Origin: Gammaproteobacteria bacterium
GTDB taxonomy: Bacteria; Pseudomonadota; Gammaproteobacteria; CAJXQU01
Reading direction: 5' to 3'
Assembly (NCBI GenBank): GCA_965238175.1
Contig: CBDEGZ010000003.1
Span: forward strand, 992,001-1,056,000
Length of the DNA stretch: 64,000 bases
Shown here piece after piece: positions 55,849 to 62,548 of this stretch; position 1 is the first letter of the stretch, and each line of letters begins with the position of its first letter. The position numbers and the translations under genes are program-made. A model generated the notes under the pieces. It made no database searches, was not told where the DNA came from, and saw only the letters and a list, made by a program, of their open reading frames with translations.

Positions 55849-56526
55849 TTACCAATATTGAGGTTTTATAGCTGGTTTTTTCTTTGTTGGAACTTTTTCG
55901 GGAAGTTGAAAAAGTTCGAGTTCTTCTTCTGAAATGTAAGAGCGAGTCCAATTTGCCAGCCTAGATAACTTTTCGTTACCGGGCCTGTTTTTTTTATTTG
56001 TCGGTTTTTTTCGAGGAAGAATCAGTCCTATTTCCATTTCGGGAACATCTTCTTTTATCATTTTTAAGGCAGGTTCAAGATCAGAATCACTTGAAACTAA
56101 AATAATTTGATCACAGCTTTGTTTAATAGCATCTCTATACATGTGTAATGCAATATTTACATCTGTTTGTTTTTCTTCGAGCTTCCAGACTTCGACTTTG
56201 TTATCTTTCTGTATTGGGTGTTCATATATTGGAGGTGTACCCTTTTCAAGGCTATGGTAGCCCATAATAATTTCTATATTTTCACCATGAGTTATAGTCA
56301 ATGCTTTGTGGTAAGTATTCTGTGATTGGTGGGATAATTCACCCTTTGTTGCAACTCTGGTTAGTACAGGAGATGTAAAATATTTTGATAGTATAATTTC
56401 ATACTTTGGATTTTGTATGTTACAAATTTTCTTGAGTAATTCAGCGACATCAAGCCACTTGTAGCCAGTATCTTTTAATAATCCATAGTAAAAGTTATAA
56501 CCATCAATATAGGCAATTGTTCGCAT
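55849..56526 (-). CDS. NYN (LabA/DUF88) domain putative ribonuclease
   Basis: YIDGYNFYY, EEKQTDVNIA, SSDSDL; start placed at MRTIAY. Confidence 0.9.
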   Translation of the reverse strand: MRTIAYIDGYNFYYGLLKDTGYKWLDVAELLKKICNIQNPKYEIILSKYFTSPVLTRVATKGELSHQSQNTYHKALTITHGENIEIIMGYHSLEKGTPPIYEHPIQKDNKVEVWKLEEKQTDVNIALHMYRDAIKQSCDQIILVSSDSDLEPALKMIKEDVPEMEIGLILPRKKPTNKKNRPGNEKLSRLANWTRSYISEEELELFQLPEKVPTKKKPAIKPQYW

Positions 56527-56544
56527 TTGAATCCCTAGAAATGA

Positions 56545-56570
56545 AAAAACCACCATGAGGTGGTTTTTTC
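56545..56570 (-). terminator. Intrinsic terminator in the leader of the NYN gene
   Basis: AAAAAACCACC-tcat-GGTGGTTTTTT about 20 nt before the ATG. Confidence 0.75.
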
Positions 56571-56703
56571 GTCTTACAGTAATGCCAACTAAATGGCTTT
56601 CCCATAAGATGAGTCGTACTAATAGCATAGTATAGCATTTGCTAGATTACAAACTATTTTATATTTCTAATATTTTATTGGTACTCAAGTAATTACTTTA
56701 AAA

Positions 56704-58158
56704 TCATGGGTTATTTATATTTATAGGGTTTGTACTAAAATGATCTGCAATAACCTCTGCCACGCAACAGGTTAATTTCTTCCCAGTAGGTATATGTAAA
56801 AACTCATTCGGACCGTGGGCATTTGATTTTGGTCCGAGGACGCCGGTGATCATAAATTGTGCTTGTGGAAATTTTTCACCGAGCATTCCCATAAATGGAA
56901 TTGATCCGCCTTCGCCCATATGTACGGCTTGTTTGCCGAAGAAATCCTTTGATGCGTTATTGATTGAATCTTCTAGCCATGGTGTCAGCTCAGGTGCATG
57001 CCAGCCACTTGCAGCCCAGTCAGGAGTGAAGGTGATTTTTGCATTGTAGGGTGGATCACTTTCCAAAATTTGTTTGAGCTTGTTCGAGGCAATTTCAGCA
57101 TCCACTGTTGGCGGTAATCGTAGTGATAATTTGATTGATGTTTTAGGACGTAGAACATTTCCAGCACTTTCAATATCTGGCAATCCACCTGCACCGATGA
57201 CCGACAAGGCAGGTCGCCATGTTCTGTTTAGAACCAGTTCTGCGAGATCATAACTGATCGGTTTTGCTTTATGGTTTTCTTCTCCAACAAAAGGAAATCG
57301 TGAGTAAGATTTTTCGCCGATTACCTCCGCAGCAATTTTCGCTTGTTGTTGTCGTGATTGTGGAATTTCAGCCTGACATTCTGCAAGTAATATTTCGCCG
57401 GTTTCTGCATTTTCGATGCGGTCAATTAATTGTCGAACGATCCGAAAGGAGTCGGGAACAATCCCACTGGCATCGCCAGAATGTGCGCCTTGTTTGATGA
57501 TTTCTACGGAGAGTTCACCGCCAGCCAATCCGCGTAAAGAGGATGTGCACCAGAGTTGATCATAATTTCCGCAACCGGAATCTAAACATATGACTAAATC
57601 TGGTTGACCGATACGATCAGAAAGTTCGTCAATGTAAAAAGGCAGATCGTAACTGCCGCTTTCTTCACAGGCTTCGATGATGACAACGCATCGTGCATGT
57701 GGAATATTTTGTTTTTGTAACGCAGTAATCGCAGTGAGGGACGAGAACATTGCATAGCCATCATCAGCGCCACCACGACCGTACAATTTGTCGTCTTTGA
57801 TTACCGGAGTCCACGGGCCGAGCCCTTCCTTCCAACCGGTCATTTCCGGTTGTTTATCGAGATGGCCATAGAGCAAAATCGTGTTGTCAGATTTGCTTGC
57901 TTCAGTGGCTGGAATATCCATAAAAATTAAAGGCGTTCTTCCTTCAAGCCGAACGACGTCTAATTCCATTTCTGGATTTTTTTGATCTTTGGCCCAACGA
58001 ACAAATTGATCAACGACTTTTTCCATGTAGCCATTTTCTTGCCAATCTGGATCAAACGCTGGAGATTTATTTGGGATACGAATGTAATCAACGAGTTCGG
58101 GAATTATTTGGTCATCCCAAACTTTTTCGACGTAGTTTTGTAATTCTTTTTTATTCAT
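56704..58158 (-). CDS. M20-family metallopeptidase (dipeptidase-like)
   Basis: YGHLDKQP, GRGGADD, EESGS, NAHGPNE. Confidence 0.93.
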   Translation of the reverse strand: MNKKELQNYVEKVWDDQIIPELVDYIRIPNKSPAFDPDWQENGYMEKVVDQFVRWAKDQKNPEMELDVVRLEGRTPLIFMDIPATEASKSDNTILLYGHLDKQPEMTGWKEGLGPWTPVIKDDKLYGRGGADDGYAMFSSLTAITALQKQNIPHARCVVIIEACEESGSYDLPFYIDELSDRIGQPDLVICLDSGCGNYDQLWCTSSLRGLAGGELSVEIIKQGAHSGDASGIVPDSFRIVRQLIDRIENAETGEILLAECQAEIPQSRQQQAKIAAEVIGEKSYSRFPFVGEENHKAKPISYDLAELVLNRTWRPALSVIGAGGLPDIESAGNVLRPKTSIKLSLRLPPTVDAEIASNKLKQILESDPPYNAKITFTPDWAASGWHAPELTPWLEDSINNASKDFFGKQAVHMGEGGSIPFMGMLGEKFPQAQFMITGVLGPKSNAHGPNEFLHIPTGKKLTCCVAEVIADHFSTNPININNP

Positions 58159-58280
58159 TTTCAGATTATATTTTTAGATAATTTTATAAGTAACCTGATG
58201 TGATGGTCTCCTCCCCCTAACGGCATCTAGGTGCCATGATTGAACTGACATACACACAATCAAAAGAGGAGAAGACCAAA

Positions 58281-59294
58281 ATGAAGACTACAACAATCGG
58301 GTTAGACATAGCAAAAAACGTATTTCATGCTGTCTGCTGTAATCAACAAGGGCGTATAATCAAAAAGAAAATGTTAAAGCGAGCGCAGGTACTCTCCTTT
58401 TTTCAATCTCAACCTCCTTGTTTAGTCGCAATAGAATCTTGTGCAACGTCACAGTATTGGGCCCGAGCGATACAACAACAGGGACATCAGGTGAAATTAC
58501 TACCACCTCAGCATGTTAACGCATTTCTAATCGGCAATAAGAATGATTATAACGATGCCTTGGCCATCGCCGTTGCTGCGAAACAACCTCATTTAAAAAG
58601 TGTGGGCATTAAATCAGTTGAGCAACAAGACAACCAGGCACAACATAAAGCAAGAGACTTAGCGGTCAGACAAAGAACCGCATTATGTAACCAAATGAGA
58701 GCGCTTGTTGCAGAATATGGCATTAGCCTTCGTCCCGGCCTAAATACCCTACGTCAATCTATCCCGTTGCTATTAAGTGATGAGAACGAACGGTTGTCCG
58801 TTACTTTCAAAAGGATACTGCGCCAGCTAAAGGAACAATGGCAATCACTTGATGCCTGTATTGCGACATTTGACCAATTGATCATTCAATCGGCAAAAAA
58901 CAATGCGATTTGCCAACGCTTACAAACTATTCCAGGGTTTGGGCCGATGGTCTCGAGCGCGTATTTTAATGAAGTGGGAAACGGCGCTCATTATCACAAA
59001 GGGCGCGATGTGTCCGCCTCATTAGGACTTGTTCCACGACAGTACAGTAGTGGTGGTAAAGAGGTGCTACTGGGGATCAGTAAACGCGGCAATAAATACC
59101 TTCGTTGTTTGTTAATTCTAGGCGCGAAGGCCGTGGTATCAAGAGCCAAAACGAAAGGCGATAAACTGAGTCAATGGATTAATCGTTTAGTTGAGACGCG
59201 GGGGCATAATCGAGCGTGTGTGGCGTATGCCAACAAAATGGCAAGAATGGCCTGGGCTATAACGGTTTCTGGTGATGACTACTCACCGGCCTAA
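58281..59294 (+). CDS. IS110-family recombinase/transposase
   Basis: GLDIAK..E..KNDYNDA (DEDD RuvC-like), GLVPRQYSSGG; GAGGAG RBS before 58281. Confidence 0.96.
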   Translation: MKTTTIGLDIAKNVFHAVCCNQQGRIIKKKMLKRAQVLSFFQSQPPCLVAIESCATSQYWARAIQQQGHQVKLLPPQHVNAFLIGNKNDYNDALAIAVAAKQPHLKSVGIKSVEQQDNQAQHKARDLAVRQRTALCNQMRALVAEYGISLRPGLNTLRQSIPLLLSDENERLSVTFKRILRQLKEQWQSLDACIATFDQLIIQSAKNNAICQRLQTIPGFGPMVSSAYFNEVGNGAHYHKGRDVSASLGLVPRQYSSGGKEVLLGISKRGNKYLRCLLILGAKAVVSRAKTKGDKLSQWINRLVETRGHNRACVAYANKMARMAWAITVSGDDYSPA

Positions 59295-59299
59295 ATAGA

Positions 59300-59510
59300 G
59301 AGAACAAATCATTTCAACGAATTGCGAAGGTAAAACTAAAGATGGCATAACAGGTCAAACCAGCCTATTGAAAACCTGTCGAGCTCAGGGGTAACTAATA
59401 CCGATAACCTGATAAGGAAAATAGGCGCGTAATACATCCAGGTCAGAAGTTGAAAACTTCATTGAAGGCCGTATATATGACAGCAATCCTGTCCCTGTTA
59501 TCTGAATGTT
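59300..59510 (+). ncRNA. Predicted bridge/seekRNA of the IS110 element (boundaries approximate)
   Basis: Stem-enclosed segments matching the target (TAACCTGA, CGAGCTCAGG) and the donor junction (ATATATGA, TACATC). Confidence 0.7.
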
Positions 59511-59577
59511 TTATCTTGCAATACGGGAGGAGACCATATATGAATTCGGGATAAGAATGACTATAAAAACATTAAAG

Positions 59578-60803
59578 TGTAGAAATTCAGATTTGATCTG
59601 ACAGTTACCCAATTATCAGTAACCGACTGTCAGGTTAAGTTTAATTCACAAACTTTTCCTTCCAGATAGCTTGTCCGTCGATGAGTGTTTCCATCGGCGT
59701 CCTCCCGCAGCACATTTTGCCTTGGTGAGTTCGTTGAGTATTGTATTTGAGCAACCATTCGTCAAGGTCGAGTTGCAGTTCATCAATCGATTGGTAAATT
59801 TTCTTACGCAAAGCGACTTGATAAAACTCATTGAGGATCGTCTTATGGAATCGCTCACAAATACCATTCGTCTGAGGTGATTTGACCTTGGTTTTGGTGT
59901 GTTCGATATTGTTCAACGCCATATAAAGCTGATAATCATGCTGGTCAGCTCGCCCACAATACTCCGTCCCTCTATCTGTCAAAATGCGCAACATAGGCAA
60001 ACGTTGTTGTTCGTAGAATGGGAGGACGCGGTCATTGAGCATGTCAGCTGCCGTAATCGGTGTTTTAGTCGGGTACAGTTTCGCGTGAGCGACCTTGCTG
60101 TAAGTATCAACAAACGTTTGTTGATAAACCCGACCAATGCCTTTGAAAGTACCGACATAGTAAGTATCTTGCGAGCCAAGATAACCAGGGTGTGCCGTTT
60201 CTATCTCGCCACAAGCCTCATCGTCGTCTTTTTTGCGTTCCATCGCCGCGACTTGAGACTCAGTGAGGATCAAGCCTTCACCAGCTACCTTATCAGACAA
60301 TGCCTTCAGGCGATCTTTAAAGCAAGCAAGACCATGACGAAGCCAGATACAACGAACGCCACTGGGTGAGACAAATGTTCCCCGTTTGCGCAGCTCGTTA
60401 CTGGTGCGCGTTTGACCATGTGCGGGCTCTTCCAGTGCATACTCGAGCACAACGGTTTCAATAGCCGGGTCGATTCTGTTTTTAAGATTTGGGGTACGCC
60501 GATTACGATCAAACAAGGCTTCTACACCGCCTTCATCAGCCGCTTCTTTGTAGCGATAAAATGTATCTCTGGACAAACCCATCATCTTGCAGGCTTTTGA
60601 GACATTGCCGAGTTCTTCAGCGAGATTGAGTAGACCAACTTTATGTTTTATAACTTTGTCATTAGTATGAATCATGAGAGTTACCTCTTTGTGTTTTGAT
60701 GTTTACGTTGCAGTTACATCAAAGCGGGTAACTCTCACTAAATCAAGCGTCGCTACGCTCCGCTTGATTTAGTGATGTGTCAGATTGGGTCTAAACTTCT
60801 ACA
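59578..60803 (-). mobile_element. IS481-family insertion sequence, copy 2 (1226 bp, no TSD)
   Basis: Inverted near-identical copy of 3075-4300; flanks ATTAAAG / GTTCA do not match. Confidence 0.93.
59641..60675 (-). CDS. IS481-family transposase
   Basis: Identical to 3203-4237 except YEQQ vs YEEQ. Confidence 0.95.
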   Translation of the reverse strand: MIHTNDKVIKHKVGLLNLAEELGNVSKACKMMGLSRDTFYRYKEAADEGGVEALFDRNRRTPNLKNRIDPAIETVVLEYALEEPAHGQTRTSNELRKRGTFVSPSGVRCIWLRHGLACFKDRLKALSDKVAGEGLILTESQVAAMERKKDDDEACGEIETAHPGYLGSQDTYYVGTFKGIGRVYQQTFVDTYSKVAHAKLYPTKTPITAADMLNDRVLPFYEQQRLPMLRILTDRGTEYCGRADQHDYQLYMALNNIEHTKTKVKSPQTNGICERFHKTILNEFYQVALRKKIYQSIDELQLDLDEWLLKYNTQRTHQGKMCCGRTPMETLIDGQAIWKEKFVN

Positions 60804-60808
60804 GTTCA

Positions 60809-62153
60809 TATATGGTCTCCTCCCGTATTGCAAGATAAAACATTCAGATAACAGGGACAGGATTGCTGTCATATATACGGCCTTCAATGAAGTTTTCAAC
60901 TTCTGACCTGGATGTATTACGCGCCTATTTTCCTTATCAGGTTATCGGTATTAGTTACCCCTGAGCTCGACAGGTTTTCAATAGGCTGGTTTGACCTGTT
61001 ATGCCATCTTTAGTTTTACCTTCGCAATTCGTTGAAATGATTTGTTCTCTCTATTTAGGCCGGTGAGTAGTCATCACCAGAAACCGTTATAGCCCAGGCC
61101 ATTCTTGCCATTTTGTTGGCATACGCCACACACGCTCGATTATGCCCCCGCGTCTCAACTAAACGATTAATCCATTGACTCAGTTTATCGCCTTTCGTTT
61201 TGGCTCTTGATACCACGGCCTTCGCGCCTAGAATTAACAAACAACGAAGGTATTTATTGCCGCGTTTACTGATCCCCAGTAGCACCTCTTTACCACCACT
61301 ACTGTACTGTCGTGGAACAAGTCCTAATGAGGCGGACACATCGCGCCCTTTGTGATAATGAGCGCCGTTTCCCACTTCATTAAAATACGCGCTCGAGACC
61401 ATCGGCCCAAACCCTGGAATAGTTTGTAAGCGTTGGCAAATCGCATTGTTTTTTGCCGATTGAATGATCAATTGGTCAAATGTCGCAATACAGGCATCAA
61501 GTGATTGCCATTGTTCCTTTAGCTGGCGCAGTATCCTTTTGAAAGTAACGGACAACCGTTCGTTCTCATCACTTAATAGCAACGGGATAGATTGACGTAG
61601 GGTATTTAGGCCGGGACGAAGGCTAATGCCATATTCTGCAACAAGCGCTCTCATTTGGTTACATAATGCGGTTCTTTGTCTGACCGCTAAGTCTCTTGCT
61701 TTATGTTGTGCCTGGTTGTCTTGTTGCTCAACTGATTTAATGCCCACACTTTTTAAATGAGGTTGTTTCGCAGCAACGGCGATGGCCAAGGCATCGTTAT
61801 AATCATTCTTATTGCCGATTAGAAATGCGTTAACATGCTGAGGTGGTAGTAATTTCACCTGATGTCCCTGTTGTTGTATCGCTCGGGCCCAATACTGTGA
61901 CGTTGCACAAGATTCTATTGCGACTAAACAAGGAGGTTGAGATTGAAAAAAGGAGAGTACCTGCGCTCGCTTTAACATTTTCTTTTTGATTATACGCCCT
62001 TGTTGATTACAGCAGACAGCATGAAATACGTTTTTTGCTATGTCTAACCCGATTGTTGTAGTCTTCATTTTGGTCTTCTCCTCTTTTGATTGTGTGTATG
62101 TCAGTTCAATCATGGCACCTAGATGCCGTTAGGGGGAGGAGACCATCACATCA
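60809..62153 (-). mobile_element. IS110 family, IS1111 group, copy 2 (1345 bp)
   Basis: Reverse-complement copy of 58196-59540. Confidence 0.92.
61055..62068 (-). CDS. IS110-family recombinase/transposase
   Basis: Protein identical to copy 1. Confidence 0.96.
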   Translation of the reverse strand: MKTTTIGLDIAKNVFHAVCCNQQGRIIKKKMLKRAQVLSFFQSQPPCLVAIESCATSQYWARAIQQQGHQVKLLPPQHVNAFLIGNKNDYNDALAIAVAAKQPHLKSVGIKSVEQQDNQAQHKARDLAVRQRTALCNQMRALVAEYGISLRPGLNTLRQSIPLLLSDENERLSVTFKRILRQLKEQWQSLDACIATFDQLIIQSAKNNAICQRLQTIPGFGPMVSSAYFNEVGNGAHYHKGRDVSASLGLVPRQYSSGGKEVLLGISKRGNKYLRCLLILGAKAVVSRAKTKGDKLSQWINRLVETRGHNRACVAYANKMARMAWAITVSGDDYSPA

Positions 62154-62167
62154 GGTTAAGTATTTTT

Positions 62168-62548
62168 TTATGTAAAGTGATCAAGCAGAACGAATATCCA
62201 GATAACCAAGCAATTGATCAGGCTGATCAAAACAGCGGCACTACCGACATCTTTTGCACGTTTTGATAGGTCATGTTTTTCTAATGAAACGCGATCAACA
62301 ATGGCTTCGATGCCTGAGTTGATTAGTTCTACGATCAAGACCAGAAAGATAGAACTGATCATGAGTGCTTTTGCTAACAAACTAACGGGTAGAATGAATG
62401 CAATGATGGTTAGTGGTATACCCAACGCCAGTTCTTGTCGGAAAGCAGATTCGTGTTTGTAGGCGGAGCGTAATCCATCTAGAGAATAGTGATAAGCATT
62501 AAATACACGACTTAGTCCAGTGGTGCCTTTGAAAGGGCTTTTCTTCAT
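62168..62548 (-). CDS. dgkA: Diacylglycerol kinase
   Basis: HESAFRQE, ELINSGIEAIVDR, AKDVGSAAV. Confidence 0.96.
   Translation of the reverse strand: MKKSPFKGTTGLSRVFNAYHYSLDGLRSAYKHESAFRQELALGIPLTIIAFILPVSLLAKALMISSIFLVLIVELINSGIEAIVDRVSLEKHDLSKRAKDVGSAAVLISLINCLVIWIFVLLDHFT

Follow-up and report, generated by a model that had tools for sequence, protein, structure and literature searches.

The closest described relatives of the system reported here are the seekRNAs of the insertion sequences (ISs) ISEc11, ISPa11, ISKpn4, and ISPst6 (Siddiquee et al., 2024; PMC11187229) and the bridge RNA of IS621 (Durrant et al., 2024, PMC11208160; Hiraizumi et al., 2024, PMC11208158). The elements of the former group have a DEDD transposase of 330-350 amino acids (aa) with a GL-P----S(t)G motif, subterminal repeats, and a long 3' non-coding region. 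The same features are seen in an IS1111-type insertion sequence that occurs in two inverted copies, copy A (58196-59543, + strand) and copy B (60806-62153, - strand), in a 64,000-nucleotide (nt) stretch of a gammaproteobacterial genome (GenBank assembly GCA_965238175.1, contig CBDEGZ010000003.1, positions 992,001 to 1,056,000). This whole stretch is referred to as the window, and positions are those of the window unless a contig is named. The segment 59340-59504 of copy A very probably encodes the guide RNA (seekRNA/bridge RNA) of this intact IS1111-group element. This reading is built on the anatomy of the element, its 25 genomic copies and their site specificity, the structure of the RNA as revealed by covariation, and the co-variation of the guides with the flanks and ends.

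In the IS1111 seekRNAs, the match complementary to the top strand lies 5' of the match to the bottom strand, and the two overlap at the insertion point (section 'A seekRNA finds the target' of PMC11187229); the guide blocks of the window RNA are arranged in the same order. As in that group, the targets are repeated elements, and the circle junction is the only place where a promoter is expected (PMC11187229). The predicted length of 165 nt compares with 154 nt for the long seekRNA. Unlike those elements, the present one has its own target, TAACC-TG-AACTCGG, the end of a small repeat, and is known here from sequence alone. In addition, PMC11187229 describes target matches only, whereas donor matches are also read in the second loop of the window RNA.

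Like the IS621 bridge RNA described in PMC11208160 and PMC11208158, the predicted RNA has two loops, a left guide for the bottom strand and a right guide for the top strand; within each loop, the two guides both span the dinucleotide core, and the right donor guide is short. Unlike the IS621 RNA, which lies in the left end, it lies in the right end, 3' of the transposase gene. The guide order within each loop is reversed, the core is TG or CG instead of the CT of IS621, and the subterminal repeats are 13 base pairs (bp) long, compared with 2-3 bp in IS621. A system of this kind is already well described (Siddiquee et al., 2024; Durrant et al., 2024) and is no surprise to specialists, the name of the NCBI protein family already being 'RNA-guided transposase'. 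With this locus, the RNA-guided IS110/IS1111 recombinases gain a natural example with good support; it offers an intact element, a defined target, empty sites in the same genome, and two core dinucleotides across the family.

Structure and conservation of the predicted guide RNA

The first-pass annotation of the window had drawn an RNA with two loops downstream of the transposase gene, and every motif it named was recovered at its position. In the first loop, these are GCCTATT (59363-69) and AATAGGC (59420-26), which enclose CGAGCTCAGG (59380-89), GGTA-actaa-TACC (59390-402), and TAACCTGA (59405-12); in the second loop, they are TACATC (59433-38), GAAGTT-gaa-AACTTC (59446-60), and ATATATGA (59473-80). 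The RNA as drawn folds from the 3' non-coding region and shows covariation in 46 homologs. In the structure model (+ strand), the predicted 165-nt RNA is closed by two outer stems, GATGGCA (59341-47) with TGTTATC (59496-502) and ACAGG (59350-54) with CCTGT (59488-92). The target-binding loop (59363-59426), as folded by RNAalifold, has a stem of 59363-69 with 59420-26 and an inner hairpin of 59390-93 with 59399-402. The donor loop has a stem of GGUC (59441-44) with GGCC (59467-70), which encloses the hairpin at 59446-60.

For the comparison, 171 loci were fetched, 80 from genome contigs, 80 from metagenome contigs, and some from related genomes. The transposases on genome contigs were at most 55% identical among the matches listed, and those on metagenome contigs 51-77%, with the closer ones at 69-77%; in a search of 400 genomes of the class, nine had a match that reached E <= 1e-90. 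Immediately 3' of the transposase gene, a 251-nt region retained 66-84% DNA identity in more than 85 of the 171 loci, the proteins being only 40-77% identical. The alignment was made from the 47 distinct loci with both ends and flanks, namely the window and 46 homologs. Locus L226 (genome G045) lies outside this set, and L144, whose left end does not align, was left out of the left-side counts. The alignment exhibits a nearly invariant scaffold broken by variable blocks, and within the target loop CCU (59375-77) and AGG (59415-17) are invariant.

RNAalifold assigned 30 pairs to this alignment, 14 of them with compensatory change. When the outer stem 59341-47/59496-502 was added to give a 37-pair structure, 95.7% of the cells paired, compared to 30-37% with the partners slid by 1-3 columns. 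Sixteen pairs of this structure had changed on both sides, and none of 500 shuffles attained any of the five measures. The both-side changes are found in the target stem (4/7 pairs), the inner hairpin (2/4), the donor-loop stem (2/4), and the donor hairpin (5/5). The single-sequence fold of the predicted RNA has a z value of -2.47.

A covariance model, R1, which was built from the 46 homologs with the window excluded, found 59340-59504 over its full length (148.6 bits, E 1e-41) and, with the same score and E value, the same RNA gene in copy B (60845-61009, - strand). Searched against the genome, R1 gave exactly 25 matches, all within copies of the IS, and no orphan RNA genes. ISPpu9 of Pseudomonas putida and its RNA Ssr9 (PMC12288879) are similar in that an IS110-family element resides in repeated extragenic sequences and carries a small RNA gene 3' of the transposase, and differ in that extra copies of that RNA are described elsewhere in the genome. 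Among 14 more distant IS1111-type loci, 13 had a full-length R1 match beside the transposase gene (62.7-155.6 bits), E. coli, Enterobacter, and Vibrio plasmids included; the matches numbered 14, with two in L035 and none in L098. Because R1 matches these more distant loci, the RNA family would be the general one of this IS group. For 93.0% of IS1111 elements, a bridge RNA has been predicted in the right end (PMC11208160).

No Rfam 15 family matched 59295-59545 at E values up to 10 in a search of 58100-59700. Elsewhere in that searched region, there was a chance match to mir-5880 and a sub-threshold match to psRNA2 (RF02349) at 59557-59606 (- strand), in the terminal region of an IS481-type element (26.2 bits compared to a gathering threshold of 65; E 5.4e-4).

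Target guides, insertion sites, and the core dinucleotide

The right target guide, UCGAGCUCAGG (59379-59389, + strand), complements the target's top strand across the last 2 nt of the left half, the core TG, and 7 nt of the right half. The left target guide, AUAACCUGA (59404-59412, + strand), is identical to the top strand over the left target half, the core, and an A, and would therefore pair with the bottom strand. The first-pass annotation had equated TAACCTGA with the left half and core of both insertion sites, and both window copies do carry TAACCTGA on their left. It had also noted a fit of 8/10 between the right guide and the right half; the reverse complement of 59380-89 indeed matches the right side of copy A at 8/10 positions and that of copy B at 7/10, and the genome consensus, CCTGAACTCG, fits better, at 9/10.

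The genome contains 25 copies of the IS, of which 23 are 100% identical and two have one substitution each, at 58919 and 59466, neither inside a guide. The element is intact and, as judged from its near-identical copies, evidently recently active. One copy is cut by a contig start and was left out, which leaves 24 complete copies for the flank counts. On the left, 23 of these read TAACCTG and all 24 read AACCTG, and the consensus of the right flank is A-ACTCGGGATAAG. The uninterrupted target, TAACCTGAACTCGGGATAAG, is found at the termini of a small repeat, with two exact occurrences in the genome and four more that differ at one position; three copies of the IS, copy B included, adjoin the end of an IS481-family element instead of the small repeat. 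The left guide (9 nt) fits the 24 sites at 9/9 positions in six cases, 8/9 in 17, and 7/9 in one. For the right guide (11 nt), the fit is 9/11 at 11 sites, 8 at nine, 7 at two, 6 at one, and 5 at one. These counts suggest that the left target half and core are read tightly, and the right target half seems to be loosely read by its guide. The specificity for these ends explains, for annotation, why the IS is located at the ends of the small repeat and of the IS481-type element.

The probability of such matches arising by chance was estimated from 20000 dinucleotide-preserving shuffles of the 230-nt non-coding region. The left target guide, TAACCTGA, occurred in 122 of the shuffles, and a right target guide (any 10-mer able to pair with the consensus target, one mismatch being allowed) in 60; the two were found together in none.

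Covariation of the guide segments with the target sites across homologs was a check that the first-pass annotation had named. Throughout the family, each locus carries its own core and right flank, in reverse complement, as the 5' block of the first loop, and the 3' block repeats its own left flank and core. With the core excluded, the left block matched its own flank at 4.54 of 6 positions, compared to 1.77 across loci, and the right block at 5.54 of 7, compared to 2.15; for neither block did any of 10000 permutations over 46 loci reach the observed match. The 46 loci (L144 left out) hold 39 distinct guide combinations, and from this natural variation we infer that the guide is reprogrammable. 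Natural re-direction has been described for ISEc11 and ISXne4 (PMC11187229). The approximately 46 relatives, with 39 different sites on one scaffold, could provide a table for designing IS1111-type guides.

The first-pass annotation had proposed a TGA core shared by donor and target. All 24 sites of this genome show TGA, and every left end that could be scored begins with A (46/46). The base 3' of YG on the right flank, however, is G in 24, A in 10, T in eight, and C in five of the 47 loci. Since this base varies, the core shared family-wide is YG, here TG; TGA is special to this clade, and only TG is required by the family comparison.

In 44 of the 47 loci, the two target guides, the left donor guide, and the right end agree in their first core base (T in 21 and C in 24, minus one row, L144, counted with T), and the left flank also shares it in 38 (T 20, C 18). 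On the transposase tree, the core changed approximately six times, and all three guides followed it in 4/4 independent pairs, with none opposed. These counts of core changes are rough, because four rows of the tree (L085, L230, L066, and L221) carried a wrong longest open reading frame (ORF) and had very long branches, and L149, with an ORF of less than 300 aa, was dropped.

Two further observations concern the junctions. In six of the 47 loci (L216, L210, L190, L195, L179, and L066), TG stands at the left junction, with CG at the right junction, in both guides for the target, and in the donor guide; a core mismatch that was tolerated and then resolved from heteroduplex could have left this discordance. 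In addition, the left target guide runs on into G-A-U (59411-59413; alignment A2 columns 72-74), with the G invariant and the A and U conserved in at least 90% of the 47 sequences. All left ends start with the two bases of this A-U, and the left guide therefore matches the finished left junction with two extra bases, which could have a role in the bottom-strand hand-over or in excision. It is a tentative suggestion, which we think may well prove wrong, that the family comparison records mechanistic details of the IS1111 group not yet described, namely the guide match to the finished left junction, the concerted TG/CG switches in four places, and the six discordant left junctions. If true, these details would document, in natural sequences, the polarity of strand exchange and the tolerance of the core in this group.

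The repeat end TAACCTGAGCTCGGGGTAAG (G000:C3:393936-393960) fits the right target guide without the A/G mismatch usual for the consensus site, and it directly adjoins a copy of the IS in the opposite orientation. At G000:C3:1393268-1393344 (L029, L030), two overlapping opposed copies of 45-46 nt comprise the left end of the IS and the target half, with no body; this locus is a candidate solo-end remnant or rearrangement scar.

The probable donor loop, the proposed mechanism, and alternative explanations

In the second loop, the putative left donor guide, AUAUAUGA (59473-59480, + strand), is identical to the right end of the element, ATATA followed by the core TG and an A (8/8 positions), and ATATATGA occurred in 243 of the 20000 shuffles. 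The putative right donor guide, UACAUC (59433-59438, + strand), would be paired with the GATGTG at 58197-202 in the left end, one of the pairs being G-U. The first-pass annotation had matched both to the predicted circle junction. Its left part stood, as ATATATGA fits fully and follows the core. Its right part is weaker, in that a 6-mer for the left end with at most one mismatch was present in 12721 of the 20000 shuffles; since it is at chance level by itself, TACATC is read as a guide from the family comparison only.

An alternative to donor guides is that only the first loop guides, as in a strict seekRNA, and that the second loop is a protein-binding scaffold, the ends being read via the subterminal repeats and the end matches being AT-rich by-products. 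An 82-nt short seekRNA of ISEc11 was enough for transposition and outperformed the 154-nt version (section 'The seekRNA is programmable' of PMC11187229), so the second loop may be dispensable in the IS1111 group. The chance-level frequency of TACATC points in the same direction, the right donor guide disagrees with the left end in 3/46 loci, and the ends vary little in the family, which leaves little variation for testing donor guides. Against the first-loop-only explanation, the first core base of the left donor guide equals that of the right end in 46/47 loci, and this guide switched with the core in 4/4 independent pairs on the tree. The guide base opposite position 4 of the left end agrees in 43/46 loci (T/T in 5, A/A in 38, discordant in 3), although only 2-3 independent changes are seen on the tree. 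Compensatory changes also keep the stems of the second loop, including all five hairpin pairs, and donor-binding loops have been predicted for IS1111-group RNAs (PMC11208160). These comparisons favor the reading of the second loop as donor guides, which we regard as likely, and leave guidance by the first loop alone as a rather unlikely explanation.

The right end of copy A contains a putative outward-facing half promoter (59516-59542, + strand), with a -35 element TTGCAA (59516-21), a 17-nt spacer, and TATG (59539-42). The -35 TTGCAA is present in 42/47 loci and the 17-nt spacer in 46/47. A circle would join the last four bases of the right end to the AT of the left end and thereby create a -10 element TATGAT or TACGAT. 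By analogy with the group, for which a junction promoter has been proposed (PMC11187229), a promoter at the circle junction presumably drives the RNA.

The production of the RNA, its binding to the transposase, and recombination driven by pairing are inferred from homology to the ISEc11, ISPa11, and ISKpn4 seekRNAs and the IS621 bridge RNA. In the proposed mechanism, the RNA would be made, probably from the circle-junction promoter, through the transposase gene and then processed, and it would bind the DEDD/serine transposase. Its two internal loops, closed by long-range stems, would serve the target (first loop) and the donor (second loop). In the target loop, 59379-89 would pair with the top strand (CC, TG, and right half) and 59404-12 with the bottom strand; in the donor loop, UACAUC would pair with the left end, and AUAUAUGA repeats the right end and core. 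The transposase-RNA complex would then join the circular junction (...CCATATA-TG-ATGTGATGG...) to TAACC-TG-AACTCGG, the end of the small repeated element, with strand exchange at the TG core driven by the guide pairings.

Several observations weigh against the assignment of 59340-59504 as a guide RNA gene. No site of the own genome fits the right target guide fully, the best reaching 9/11 and two sites 5-6/11. The compared loci are kin, so the permutation figures overstate independence, and the independent-pairs tests hold too few events for significance (p 0.125). A scan for sigma-70-like promoters on the + strand within the IS found none, and the sequencing runs listed for the sequence are three DNA contig runs (one sample and one study, from which the assembly may derive), with no RNA run among them. 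The last two points, together with the fact that covariation alone cannot separate an RNA fold from a fold of single-stranded DNA, would be compatible with a conserved non-coding region that acts as DNA, as transposase binding sites or a folded single strand, and makes no RNA. Homologous IS1111 elements, however, do make an RNA here, which co-purifies with the transposase and is essential (PMC11187229). Moreover, many positions of the structure accept a G-U pair (pair 30/85, for instance, is UG in 17, CG in 16, and UA in 10), and the guide layout is that of the proven RNAs. A purely DNA-level function is thus considered highly improbable. The matches between loops and flanks could also be due to chance or be a by-product of the repeats, given that the motifs are short, the genome is AT-rich, and TAACCTGA occurs in it 244 times. 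The complete absence of both target guides together from the shuffles, and the permutation result for 46 loci with 39 guide pairs, refute this explanation as far as sequence analysis goes, and practically no weight is left to it. The DNA contigs covering 57900-59900 contained no joint or circle junction, which says nothing on expression; they included a collapsed repeat contig (58191/58192-59543) with loose ends into other flanks.

Element ends, transposase, and neighboring features

The two copies are the arms of an inverted repeat of 1372 nt (58173-59544 and 60805-62176; 99% complementary), copy B being the mirror copy of copy A. Copy A, listed with TGA at both junctions, has the junctions TAACCTGA|TGTGATGG... 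and ...CCATATATGA|ATTCGGG; copy B has the same left junction and the right junction ...TGA|ACTGTAG. On the left of copy A (+ strand), the target half TAACC and the left core copy TG occupy 58191-58197 (TG at 58196-97), and A at 58198 completes TGA. After a 5-nt extension, ATGTG (58198-202), follows the left subterminal inverted repeat, ATGGTCTCCTCCC (58203-58215), which is conserved in the 47-locus left-end alignment. The right subterminal inverted repeat, GGGAGGAGACCAT (59525-59537, + strand), seen in both the sequence and the alignment, is followed by ATA and the core TG (59541-42). The repeats are thus 13 bp long (58203-15 and 59525-37), the extensions beyond them measure, apart from the core, 5 nt on the left and 3 nt on the right, and in the IS1111 group they are 7-17 bp with short terminal extensions (PMC11208160). 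The non-coding regions measure 246 nt 3' of the transposase gene and 80 nt 5' of it.

The transposase gene (58278-59294, + strand) encodes 338 aa and has matches in Pfam and NCBIfam. The start at 58278 is preferred because a GAGGAG ribosome-binding site precedes this ATG, whereas the alternative upstream ATG in the ORF list, 58236, would give 352 aa, compared to 337 aa in the homologs. The protein has an N-terminal DEDD (RuvC-like) domain, DEDD_Tnp_IS110 (PF01548, E 3.6e-16), and a C-terminal Transposase_20 domain (PF02371, E 6.4e-20), and it scores 302.8 bits, compared to a cutoff of 140, against NF033542, 'IS110 family RNA-guided transposase'. Residues D10, E53, D90, D93, and S257/G259 are invariant in 21 aligned transposase sequences. 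The segment GLVPRQYSSG (residues 250-259) corresponds to the GL-P----S(t)G motif defined for IS1111 transposases (PMC11187229), and its serine is aligned with the ESG serine of the IS621 transposase. The only solved relatives are IS621 (8wt6, E 2.2e-4) and ISCro4 (9t56, E 2.4e-4), from both of which the protein differs in that the similarity is confined to the C-terminal domain. The homologs returned by protein searches number in the thousands; the nearest ones (75-83% identity) come from metagenomes and marine Gammaproteobacteria, and one of them already bears the name 'IS110 family RNA-guided transposase'. Among relatives carried on plasmids, the closest are approximately 45% identical.

The IS1111 group is distinguished from the IS110 group by a longer non-coding region downstream of the transposase gene and a transposase of 330-350 aa (PMC11187229). 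The assignment of the present element follows from the transposase domains and motif, the 13-bp subterminal repeats, and the 246-nt 3' non-coding region, which separate IS1111 from IS110. By all the features that can be tested in a sequence, namely the DEDD domain, Transposase_20 with the motif, the subterminal repeats, the longer 3' non-coding region, the transposase length, and insertion into one sequence, the element belongs to the IS1111-group seekRNA/bridge RNA systems.

Between the inverted copies lies an IS481-family element (59573-60790; ORF 59641-60675, - strand; NF033577, 278.4 bits). One IS481-type end (flank ACTGTAGAAGTTTAGACCCA) is directly adjoined by copy B and two other copies of the IS, and the other end by a fourth copy; the IS1111-type and IS481-type elements thus seem to nest at the same repeat ends. 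Degenerate fragments of related transposases are located at G000:C3:2357906-2358383 and 2897426-2898116; one has 79% DNA identity over 395 nt, and the other has 35% protein identity and stop codons inside. An environmental gammaproteobacterium is the apparent host, and nothing pointed to a listed pathogen; the flanking M20 peptidase has its nearest named relatives, at 72-75% identity, in Methylococcales and gammaproteobacterial metagenome bins, and an ORF of 259 aa (55849-56628, - strand) lies upstream of the peptidase gene.

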